This document shows, one piece after another, positions 49,189 to 52,178 of a stretch of DNA of 64,000 nt. Numbering within the stretch: position 1 is the first letter of the stretch; the number at the start of each line of letters is the position of its first letter. The stretch comes from Thermoplasmatota archaeon (GTDB lineage: Archaea > Thermoplasmatota > Thermoplasmata > UBA10834). Both the position numbers and the translations under genes were made by a program. The notes beneath the pieces were generated by a model. That model searched no databases. It was not told where the DNA came from and saw nothing but the letters and a program-made list of their open reading frames with translations. The stretch is taken from the NCBI GenBank assembly GCA_018814355.1, contig JAHIZT010000033.1, positions 943-64,942 of the forward strand, given 5' to 3'.

Positions 49189-49758
49189 TTAGAATCGCCT
49201 GCGGCCCTTGTTCATGTAGCTGGGTCTGTCCCCGCCGCTGCTATCCCGGTCTCCGCCTCTGTCGCCGTAGCCGCCGCGGCTTCCGCCTCTGCTGCCGCCA
49301 CCGCCGTATCCGCCACGGCTTCCGCCTCTGCTGCCGCCACCGCCGCCGAAGCTCCTGCGCTCCTGTTCGTACTCCTTGTCGCTCATGTTCAAGGCCGTGC
49401 TCGCACCGTCAAGTGGCTTCTCGCTCTTCGCGAGCTGGCCGTACTTGCCGACGTTCAGGCGCATGTGGCCCCTGACCAGTGAGACATATCCGTTCTTGAT
49501 CCCGAGCACGTCATCCTTGATGATGCTGCCGATCTGGTTGTCCCACAGTGACAGGATGATTGCTCCTGTCTCATCTGCGACTGTCGCCTCAGCGACCTTG
49601 CGCGAGTTCCCGAACTTGCCGGGGATGTCTTTCGCTTCGCTGACATCCAGGCACTTGGCCAGTACGTCAACCCTCTTCGACTGTGGCGTGAGGTCCTTTA
49701 TCTTCGTCTCTACGCTTGCTTGCTGCTCTTCCGAGCTTTGTCCAACGCTCTCTTCCAT
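49189..49758 (-). CDS. ssb: Single-OB-fold ssDNA-binding protein with RGG/Gly-rich tail
   Basis: KIKDL, VAEATVADETG.I.LSLWD, NGYV and LNVGKYG motifs. Confidence 0.85.
   Translation of the reverse strand: MEESVGQSSEEQQASVETKIKDLTPQSKRVDVLAKCLDVSEAKDIPGKFGNSRKVAEATVADETGAIILSLWDNQIGSIIKDDVLGIKNGYVSLVRGHMRLNVGKYGQLAKSEKPLDGASTALNMSDKEYEQERRSFGGGGGSRGGSRGGYGGGGSRGGSRGGYGDRGGDRDSSGGDRPSYMNKGRRRF
49277..49345. repeat. Exact 30-bp direct repeat (period 39) encoding the GGGGSRGGSR units
   Basis: 49277-49306 is identical to 49316-49345. Confidence 0.85.
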
Positions 49759-50001
49759 GTCTATTCTTCCTTTTGTGTTGCGCACAATTGCATCCGGCTA
49801 TCACGCGAGTCAAACTATCGGCTTCAAAACATCAGCGATGTTCGGCTTGTCGTATCACTCGGCACAACTAGTGCTGGGATAACCACTATCCTCGACACTA
49901 TTAATAATCTTGCCCGCAACATCCGCCAGCTCGCCGGCCCTCTGCTGATTGGTATCTATCCAGCGCCCATCATTCCGCCCAAATTGCCGGGCCTGGAGCT
50001 A

Positions 50002-50026
50002 GCAAAGGATATATATGCACCTTTGC
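50002..50026 (+). promoter_or_regulatory. TATA box enclosed by the inverted repeat GCAAAGG-N11-CCTTTGC
   Basis: ATATATAT at 50009-50016 lies between the two arms. Confidence 0.55.
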
Positions 50027-50046
50027 GTACGCCGTTACCTGTTTGA

Positions 50047-50169
50047 GGAGCACAGATCCGTTGAAATCCGCAAGGATTCTCCGCATGGAGGTCTGCTCCC
50101 CGCCGGGGCAGTGGGTTCATGGTGCTCGCGCTCGATATCCGGAAGGAACTGTGAGGGACCCGAGTTCCT
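50047..50169 (+). ncRNA. Structured 5' leader (three-way junction plus RBS-proximal hairpin), riboswitch candidate
   Basis: P1 GGAGC/AGATC with GGTCT/GCTCC; P2 closed by GCAA; P3 closed by GCAT; AGGAACT/AGTTCCT hairpin. Confidence 0.45.
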
Positions 50170-50177
50170 GAAGGGGG

Positions 50178-52178
50178 ATGCACATGGTTGACGCAGGTTT
50201 AGGCCAGCCTATTAATGCGAACTCGGCCACTCCTCCGCCACCGCCAACCGAATTCCACGCAAAGGAGGAACCTCTGCAGGGAGGGCTCGCGGGCGATATC
50301 ACTAAGCTGGGGATCAAGGACCTTCGAGTAGTGTCCTCTCATGGCGAAAGGCTGCTCTATTCTCGGGATCAATCGGAGATTCCGCGTTTTCTCAAGGAAA
50401 TCATGTTCGCCACGTCGCCCGAGGTCGTGGTCCAGCCAGAGACCCGCGAGGGCGTGGCATCGATCCTGAAGTTCGCCTCTTCGCGGGGTATCACGGTCAT
50501 ACCGCGCGGCTCGGGCTCATCCCCGTTCGGGGGCTCAGTGCCCGTTCGGGGAGGCATCGTCGTCGACGTATCCAGCATGGATGGGATACTCGGACTTGAT
50601 TCGGAAATGAAGATCGCCAAGGTCCAGGCGGGTGTGAGATGGGCTGACCTCGACAACGAGCTCGAGAAGATCGGCCTCAGCCTGAACACCACACCCTCCA
50701 GCAAGTTCTCAACTGTCGCTGGCTGGGTCGCCACTGGTGGCATGGGCCTGAACAGCTTCTCGAAAGGACATCTGAGCAGCAGCGTGTTGTCCGTCGAGCT
50801 CGTCACTCCGGACGGAAGCATCAGGAACATCGCGAGCAGCGACCCGTTTTTCAAGAGCATCTTCGGGAGCGAGGGCCAGCTGGGCGTGATCACCGCCGTC
50901 ACGCTGTCCGTCCGAATCAGGCCCATTATGTCGAAGCCGCACTTGTTGGTGTTCGATGACTCGAGGAGCGCGTTCGGTTTCGCGCGGACCCTCGCGGAGA
51001 GCTCGGCCCACCCGACCCACATCGTATACGAGAGTCCAGCGAAGTTCTCACTCACAAACCGTATGTTGGGCGAGAACCGCTTCAAGGTCGGCGACGCCAT
51101 CATCGTGAACATCGAGGGGGACGAGGCGGAGAGGGAGTTCCAGTCCCTGTTGAAGAGCACGGGCCTCAAGGATGAGAAGGAATACCTGGCGCGGTACATG
51201 TGGAACGAGCGCTACTTCCCGATGAAGATTCGAAAATTCGGACCTGGGCTCCTGGGCTCCGAGGTCGTTGTTCCGCTCGACAAGCTCCCTGACGCGATAT
51301 CCAAAGCCACTGAGGTGTGCTCCGAGCTCGGCCTCGAACCTCTCTTCGAGACACATTTTCTGAACGACGGCCGCGGGCTCCTGCTCTGCTACTATGTCAC
51401 GGACCAGGGCAATACCATCGGCTACACACTGGACGCCATGAAATCGATGATACTCACGGGCGCACTTGTCGACCTAGGAGCGAAGCCATATTCGATCGGT
51501 GTGTGGAACCACGCGTTCTCAAACGCTGAGGACAAGGCTCGGGTCGAGCAACTGCGGAAGGCCAAAGCGGCCTTGGATCCGGACGGCGTGATGAATGCAG
51601 GGAAGTACTTCTCATTATCCGGAAGGTTCGGCGGCGCAGCTGGCTTAGCGTTCAGCCCGAGGCTCATGAGGCCCGCCTTGAAGGCCCTGCTCGTATTCTC
51701 TCCATTGACCTCACGTCTCATGCGGACGGCTTACAGGTTCGCTGACAAACGTCTCGTGCCAAAGGCGCGGTCGGAGCTGCAGCGGATAGCGGATGAGTGC
51801 GCGATGTGCGGGGCTTGCGTTACCGTGTGCCCCGCGTATCTGGTCGTTGGAGACGAGCGAGTTACCGCGAGGGGAAAGCTCCTCACAGTAAAAGCCATGG
51901 CCCGGGGTGCCAAGGTCTCCAAGGAGCACTCGGACAGGATATTCCTGTGCATGAGATGCAAGGCGTGCGAGCAGGTATGCCAATCCAAGCTCGAGCTGAT
52001 CTCCGCATACGAAGCCCTGGAGAAGGAACTGGAAAAGCTGCACGGGAAGGATGCGAAGGAGATCGAGACATTCACGAGATACGCGGAGAGCACGCCCGAG
52101 TATGACGCGCTCGTCCAGCGTGGTCTCGTGCTCGGCGCTCCAAAGCACGGTATGGGAGGTGGACAGAGAGATGTTTGA
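50178..52178 (+). CDS. FAD-binding oxidoreductase (GlcD/LdhD-like) fused to a 4Fe-4S dicluster
   Basis: PRGSGS..GG, STVAGW, GSEGQLGVIT; CAMCGACVTVCP and CMRCKACEQVC. Confidence 0.88.
   Translation: MHMVDAGLGQPINANSATPPPPPTEFHAKEEPLQGGLAGDITKLGIKDLRVVSSHGERLLYSRDQSEIPRFLKEIMFATSPEVVVQPETREGVASILKFASSRGITVIPRGSGSSPFGGSVPVRGGIVVDVSSMDGILGLDSEMKIAKVQAGVRWADLDNELEKIGLSLNTTPSSKFSTVAGWVATGGMGLNSFSKGHLSSSVLSVELVTPDGSIRNIASSDPFFKSIFGSEGQLGVITAVTLSVRIRPIMSKPHLLVFDDSRSAFGFARTLAESSAHPTHIVYESPAKFSLTNRMLGENRFKVGDAIIVNIEGDEAEREFQSLLKSTGLKDEKEYLARYMWNERYFPMKIRKFGPGLLGSEVVVPLDKLPDAISKATEVCSELGLEPLFETHFLNDGRGLLLCYYVTDQGNTIGYTLDAMKSMILTGALVDLGAKPYSIGVWNHAFSNAEDKARVEQLRKAKAALDPDGVMNAGKYFSLSGRFGGAAGLAFSPRLMRPALKALLVFSPLTSRLMRTAYRFADKRLVPKARSELQRIADECAMCGACVTVCPAYLVVGDERVTARGKLLTVKAMARGAKVSKEHSDRIFLCMRCKACEQVCQSKLELISAYEALEKELEKLHGKDAKEIETFTRYAESTPEYDALVQRGLVLGAPKHGMGGGQRDV

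Follow-up and report, generated by a model that had tools for sequence, protein, structure and literature searches.

A conserved, structured 5′ leader as a candidate regulatory RNA of a split glutamate synthase operon in one Thermoplasmata family

What occupies the long interval between the promoter and the first start codon of a glutamate synthase operon in an uncultured Thermoplasmatota archaeon, and does it act as RNA, as DNA or as coding sequence? We addressed this question for a locus in a 64,000-nt stretch of contig JAHIZT010000033.1 (hereafter, the window), which belongs to a MAG of 2.06 Mb and 97% completeness. Coordinates below are window positions and refer to the plus strand unless stated otherwise. 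The first gene of the operon (50178–52178) encodes FAD_binding_4, FAD-oxidase_C and 4Fe-4S domains and is followed by three overlapping ORFs, the second ORF of the operon carrying Fer4 and a weak Glu_synthase domain, the third Fer4 and a Glu_synthase FMN domain and the fourth GATase and GXGXG. As judged from these domains, the operon is a flavoprotein-first, split glutamate synthase (GOGAT) with the leader at its head. An initial sequence-only reading of the window had placed the leader in front of a glutamate synthase operon. The operon assignment stands, with the amendment that gene 1 is a GlcD/GlcF-like FAD/Fe-S flavoprotein and that the GltB-like subunits are genes 2–4.

Upstream, the leader is bordered by a divergent SSB-like gene (49189–49785, minus strand). 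Its OB-fold product has an RGG/YG tail, and the gene adjoins the leader divergently in 27 of 30 orthologous loci (65–86% identity); an MFS gene beyond it is syntenic too. A special link between the SSB-like gene and the leader was considered on the basis of this adjacency and rejected, as the entire neighborhood is equally kept in the orthologous loci.

The region between promoter and start codon is laid out identically wherever the operon's first gene was compared. Orthologues of this gene in 30 related genomes (52–83% amino-acid identity) are all preceded by BRE/TATA (GAAAGGGCTAWATA) and then the leader, with 174–182 nt from BRE to ATG that contain conserved blocks; sequences 5′ of the BRE are unrelated between genomes. 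In the window, BRE (AAAGG) and TATA box (ATATATAT) span 50004–50017, fit the archaeal consensus and would constitute the promoter. In a larger leader set introduced below, GAAAGnnnTAWATA recurs at the identical distance in 72 of the 72 leaders with upstream sequence. As in archaeal promoters, BRE/TATA lies ~27 nt upstream of a predicted purine start, which we place at a near-invariant G (50041), ~27 nt from the TATA centre and within a conserved G7/T8 (alignment column c corresponds to window position 50034 + c, up to column 129). Because BRE/TATA is strictly conserved at a fixed distance, we infer from the TATA-centre spacing (about −27) a leader of ~137 nt. This agrees with the long leader of ~135 nt first proposed, and there was no sign of a transcription start near 50178.

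Is this leader maintained by selection, and how widely? Synonymous third positions of the first gene are saturated, at 0.32–0.48 identity between genomes, and in the genome pairs with saturated synonymous sites the 5′ domain of the leader is 0.87–0.88 identical, the leader as a whole being nearly constant in length. Measured against this sequence divergence, the leader is shown to be under purifying selection. We built a covariance model (R1) on 13 members of the genus; it gave exactly one match per genome in 39 of the 46 species of the Thermoplasmata family and, in the window's own genome, matched this locus alone. A family-wide covariance model (R2), which includes one false positive from a methyltransferase CDS (L135), recovered the leader in 41 of the family's 46 genomes; across 355 further genomes of the class it gave no significant hit. 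Presence of the leader tracks the operon, four genomes (G023, G026, G028 and G033) being devoid of both. Scanning metagenomes with the 17-mer CCTGAGGGGGGATGCAC yielded 46 further full-length leaders, and the combined set from family genomes and metagenomes comprised 74 distinct leaders (about 29 effective). Every leader stands directly upstream of the FAD/Fe-S flavoprotein and split-GOGAT operon, behind the fixed BRE/TATA.

Second R2 matches (38–58 bits) in three genomes of one genus were discarded as false positives, since they fall inside a methyltransferase CDS that shares TTCCTGAGGGGGGATG with the leader. The methyltransferase-like CDS L147:995–1149, with the same gene in L148 and L149, contains this 16-mer (TTCCTGAGGGGGGATG) and scores 24 bits with R1; a common origin with the leader is possible. 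In Methanomassiliicoccales, the orthologous operons have upstream regions unrelated to the leader. Eight loci of this order (L075, L077, L082, L084, L085, L087, L096 and L097) carry conserved blocks of their own, for instance GGTCCGGGATGATCGGCGCAT...GAAATGGCGAATGCGG, about 150–320 nt upstream of the gene start. An Rfam scan of twelve Methanomassiliicoccales loci gave no match, and the blocks could represent either another, independent leader or the terminal part of a neighboring gene. Separately, five low-GC Methanomassiliicoccus-like loci (L066, L068, L069, L090 and L091) have an AT-rich conserved upstream stretch ending in ...ATAAAAACAACAAGCGTCTATGC..., about 40 nt before the ATG.

The first ~97 nt of the leader (50041–50137) form a predicted structured domain, obtained with RNAalifold on the genus and matched by most single-sequence MFEs of the 74 leaders. 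P1 is a long-range helix with alternative registers (50043–50051/50128–50135; columns 9–17/94–101), continued by P2 (50054–50061/50119–50126; columns 20–27/85–92) and P3 (50066–50069/50113–50116; columns 32–35/79–82). In the fold that the alignments indicate, this P1-P2-P3 rod closes a three-way junction bearing hairpins P4 (50075–50093; columns 41–59) and P5 (50094–50110; columns 60–76). With a structure-blind MAFFT alignment of the 74 leaders, 77.1% of cells pair and the covariation score is 0.251; sliding the partners lowers these figures to 37–46% and 0.084–0.124, and reduces the number of double-change cells from 203 to 92–132. Pairing figures were similar in 40-genome and model-fitted alignments. 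Among 10,296 column pairs, 23/89 ranks first (GU 41, GC 17, AU 15, unpaired 1) and 63/73 third (UA 43, CG 11, UG 10, GC 7), and substitutions that preserve pairing also occur at 17/94 (CG 54, AU 7) and 26/86 (AU 30, GU 11, GC 9). An unbiased scan of 9,180 candidate 5-bp helices returned P2 at ranks 1 and 5 and P5 at rank 4. Covariation on homologous leaders, proposed at the outset as a check, is thus present. G-U pairs are frequent, and therefore it is the sense RNA that folds, not DNA or the antisense strand. The folding z of the 5′ domain was negative in 40 of 40 genomes, with a mean of −2.04 relative to shuffles. Near-invariant columns concentrate in the P1 and P2 strands, the P5 stem and the 3′ domain. 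From these data we hold with good confidence that the leader is a real, functional RNA structure.

Could the conserved blocks instead be operator sites for transcription factors around and downstream of the start, acting as DNA? One segment invites this reading. The promoter-proximal block GCGTACGCCGTT (50025–50036; core TAC-R-S-CG at about −13 to −7) is near-invariant in the 30-genome alignment and GC-rich, which is unusual in a promoter-proximal region, normally A/T-rich. Its TACRSCG core is kept in 72 leaders, with the left half of the block variable, and in the window it reads as the palindrome GCGTACGC, which not all relatives keep. Since it lies between TATA and the predicted start, the block cannot be RNA, and its conservation suggests that it may be an operator for a regulator. 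A regulon was nevertheless not defined by this motif: its 10-mer GCGTACGSCG has 7 genome copies versus 7 for a control, the frequency expected by chance, and stands behind a TATA only at this locus in the genome. Over 90 nt, the compensatory changes and the many G-U pairs, which would read A-C on the opposite strand, also speak against DNA-level control, as does the uniformly negative folding z; we regard such control as very improbable for the region at large, and it probably explains only the promoter-proximal block. Around the TATA box itself, an inverted repeat GCAAAGG-N11-CCTTTGC (50002–50026) is shared by the closest relatives alone; the remaining members have another dyad there or none, and one clade has the palindrome CCTATATAGG.

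The helices of this fold differ in part from those first drawn for the window. Every complementarity then described exists: GGAGC (50047–51) and AGAUC (50054–58) with GGUCUGCUCC (50090–99) as P1, GAAAUCC-GCAA-GGAUUC (50063–79) as P2, UCC-GCAU-GGA (50080–89) as P3, and AGGAACU (50144–50) with AGUUCCU (50163–69) as a 3′ hairpin ahead of a G-run (50173–77) and the ATG (50178). As single sequences, the 53-nt core had a z of −2.17, with 7 of 200 shuffles folding as well, and the whole leader had a z of +0.78 relative to dinucleotide shuffles, that is, no extra stability. Across the family, the outer part of the original P1 (columns 13–17/61–65) is invariant and never covaries, and its strand forms P5. 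At 15/63, with AU in 26 and no pair in 14, this outer helix breaks where column 63 changes, and it is column 73 that compensates. The inner part pairs in about half of the sequences and the original P2 in 43% of cells, and neither is conserved. The original P3 persists and forms the upper part of P4; the 3′ hairpin of 7 bp is conserved as one of two alternatives, the box-1 form described below. A three-way junction does exist, composed of helices other than those of the original P1/P2 architecture. A two-hairpin conformer (GAGCA 13–17/UGCUC 61–65 plus GAGCA 72–76/UGCUC 89–93) was also considered and rejected; its complementarity is conserved, but changes are one-sided and one genus is without it.

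The window's own copy is among the weakest folders (z −0.74), with P2 mismatches at A50056 and U50057, and its MFE uses an alternative register that pairs GAGCAC (50048–53) with GUGCUC (50122–27). The P1 register varies between genera, and two registers compete within the window's genus. A U-A double change between the close pair L003 and L004 fits the alternative P1 register; the family-wide covariation at 23/89 fits the main one. RNAalifold returned no structure for all 30 genomes together, the genus core alone giving the fold, because helix registers differ between genera. An MI scan of column pairs was dominated by clade signal, also with APC correction, and only 4 of the top 80 pairs were in the structure. 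One genus has P4 and P5 replaced by a different sequence. Inspection by eye found no tandem G-A pairs of a K-turn.

Downstream of the structured domain, a 3′ domain (50144–50169) contains a single pyrimidine box, GUUCCU (50164–50169), for which two purine boxes compete. Box 1, AGGAAC (50144–50149), is paired in 88% of cells, with changes at 115/131 (CG 44, GC 9, UG 9), and box 2, AGGGAC (50154–50159), shows ~88% conserved pairing, with changes at 123/133 (GU 40, GC 14, AU 13, AC 2). Both pairings thus display compensatory changes. The 3′ domain gave no thermodynamic signal over 40 genomes (mean z −0.17).

It is followed by an in-frame stop (TGA, 50169–71), the SD GAAGGGGG (50170–77) and the start codon (ATG, 50178–80), together 50169–50180. 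CCTGAGG(G/T)GG is invariant or near-invariant here, and orthologues of the first gene share the MH.. N-terminus. No 16S rRNA gene was detectable in the whole MAG (G000); the 16S 3′ end with the anti-SD, taken from a genus-mate with a complete genome, is GGAUCACCUCCU. Between the two domains, a pyrimidine linker, UAUCC (50136–50140), is a candidate anti-SD for GGGGA (50174–50178), which comprises the SD G-run and the A of the ATG. The linker/SD helix (columns 102–106/141–145) ranks second in the 9,180-helix scan, and a genus with the SD GAGGUGGAG has CUCUG in place of the linker UUUCC. Since any pyrimidine run pairs with a G-run, these data point only weakly to the linker as an anti-SD. The predicted accessibility of SD and AUG was 0.38 with the native and 0.37 with a shuffled 5′ domain, so that the computation indicates no coupling, and no clear expression platform of mutually exclusive pairings emerged.

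The stop codon just before the ATG raises the question of whether the leader is translated. Frame 0, the frame of the main ATG, is open over 50043–50171 (35–42 codons) and ends at the invariant TGA/TAA at 50169–71. Ribosomes could read this frame, stop 6 nt before the ATG and re-initiate, the peptide sequence being irrelevant and the RNA fold modulating the process; such a translated uORF could coexist with a structured leader. Between column 9 and the terminal stop, frame 0 contains no stop codon in 58 of the 65 sequences or, counted by cluster, in 25 of 27, versus 13.1 clusters expected under a null model that ignores phylogeny. Outside fixed positions, frame 0 has no stops, frame 1 has 10 and frame 2 has 25, and in two variants TGA has become TAA, still a stop. 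Possible starts are an ATG at columns 12–14 in about 20 sequences and TTG or GTG at columns 9 or 27 elsewhere, with AGGAG 10 nt before column 27. The start codon is, however, not conserved, the candidate starts lie inside P1/P2, and two clades are frame-shifted. Codon periodicity is absent (entropy 1.10/1.10/1.17), and the synonymous fraction of 0.28 is neutral, with 0.28–0.37 across all frames. An unconstrained translated uORF would fit the openness of frame 0, and relatedness plus chance might account for it; altogether we consider a translated uORF improbable.

A second coding possibility is a short leader peptide, MVLALDIRKEL (50119–50154), with an attenuation-like role. An ORF with ATG or GTG and TGA recurs at this position in many genus members, and one clade has a 3-nt indel. 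However, one genus has no start codon (AGG GCG), the stop is variable in position or absent, and the synonymous fraction is 0.30. Moreover, the ATG is replaced by ACG precisely in those sequences in which the P2 partner is G instead of A (pair 26/86). We rejected the peptide, which we regard as highly implausible, because it is not conserved across the family and P2 pairing explains the pattern better.

These comparisons favor a structured 5′ leader RNA that acts in cis on the flavoprotein/split-GOGAT operon and is specific to the family, an explanation to which we give moderate preference. A conserved fold that occurs once per genome in one family and has no match in an RNA database makes the leader a credible new regulatory RNA. 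Searches of Rfam 15 gave no relevant match at E values up to 10 for the window and up to 5 for five other leaders, in keeping with the initial view that it matches no known riboswitch class, and literature searches found no description of the element. We classify it as a new motif of the kind 'structured cis-regulatory 5′ leader/riboswitch candidate', restricted to one uncultured Thermoplasmata family.

Within this explanation, a sub-case is a classical metabolite riboswitch, with a 5′ aptamer for glutamine, glutamate, 2-oxoglutarate or a flavin whose ligand would stabilize P1 and release the SD from its pairing with the linker. The leader is a possible riboswitch in that it has a conserved structured 5′ UTR domain with covariation-supported helices: a discrete, P1-closed domain that contains a three-way junction and occupies the extreme 5′ end. 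The candidate anti-SD follows directly on the 3′ strand of P1 and co-varies between genera, and the element heads a nitrogen-assimilation operon. The absence of Rfam matches, however, extends to the glutamine and Downstream-peptide families, and with a single locus per genome in a single family, there is neither another locus nor a regulon from which a ligand could be guessed. Junction and loop residues differ between genera, and we found no conserved junction or loop nucleotides that would form a pocket, the junction columns being high in entropy. Nor did the predicted SD accessibility depend on the domain, and we judge a classical metabolite riboswitch unlikely.

Comparison with known systems places the structured leader among several types of element and identifies it with none. 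The glnA RNA (RF01739) and Downstream-peptide (RF01704) motifs are three-stem leaders on nitrogen-assimilation genes with a purine-rich, GGAAG-type element near the 3′ side. Our leader resembles them in its structured three-stem form, its association with nitrogen-assimilation genes and its purine-rich element near the 3′ side, but differs in lacking an Rfam match, in its length (about 97 versus about 60 nt) and in being archaeal and not cyanobacterial or marine. Riboswitch classes reported in Archaea are TPP, in Thermoplasmata, and fluoride. Like these, the leader is a cis-acting 5′ element of a Thermoplasmata lineage and has no U-tract terminator, whereas its fold and sequence are different, it serves one family and one operon and it is not in Rfam. 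As no U-tract for termination occurs in the leader, its action would presumably be on translation. Similar to protein-binding autoregulatory leaders such as that of the ribosomal-protein L1 operon of Methanococcus, its conservation lies in an irregular, bulged helix, and it is an operon-specific element at a single locus. In contrast to the L1 case, the products of this operon are redox enzymes and none is a known RNA binder, and no candidate leader-binding protein was identified. Finally, the stop 6 nt before the next start, the SD between them and the open upstream frame recall archaeal termination–reinitiation coupling, from which the locus differs in that its upstream frame has neither coding constraint nor a fixed start codon.

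How might the structured leader work? In the scheme that best fits the comparative data, transcription would start near 50041, ~27 nt downstream of the TATA centre, and the first ~97 nt would fold into a compact domain in which P1 joins the 5′ end to 50128–50135 and stacks on P2 and P3, closing the three-way junction with P4 and P5. A specific effector would recognize this domain and set expression after transcription has started. The most plausible route would be translation initiation, through linker/SD pairing and the competing boxes, with mRNA stability as an alternative. Conservation in the helical rod and P5 stem, and not in the junction, gives a slight lean toward protein binding or alternative pairing over a ligand pocket. 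A protein effector is a tentative proposition. We are rather doubtful of a small metabolite, that is, of a true riboswitch for which glutamine, glutamate and 2-oxoglutarate are natural guesses, and a structure that acts without any effector seems quite improbable to us. The most far-reaching version, which we think distinctly unlikely, is a new riboswitch class and the first archaeal sensor of a nitrogen-status metabolite (glutamine, glutamate or 2-oxoglutarate), controlling translation of the flavoprotein-driven, non-canonical glutamate synthase through the P1-linked anti-SD, perhaps together with a translated, sequence-free uORF that stops 6 nt ahead of the start codon.

To our knowledge, cis-regulatory RNAs are barely known in Archaea, and we know of archaeal nitrogen control almost entirely through proteins and a few sRNAs. 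The 74-sequence alignment, covariance model and defined helices provide a resource for a leader under clear selection, and synthetic RNAs of these uncultured organisms allow direct probing for ligands or binding proteins. Should the effector be a metabolite, riboswitch-based nitrogen sensing would be extended to Archaea. The leader heads an uncharacterized type of glutamate synthase, and its effector would hint at the physiological role of the enzyme.
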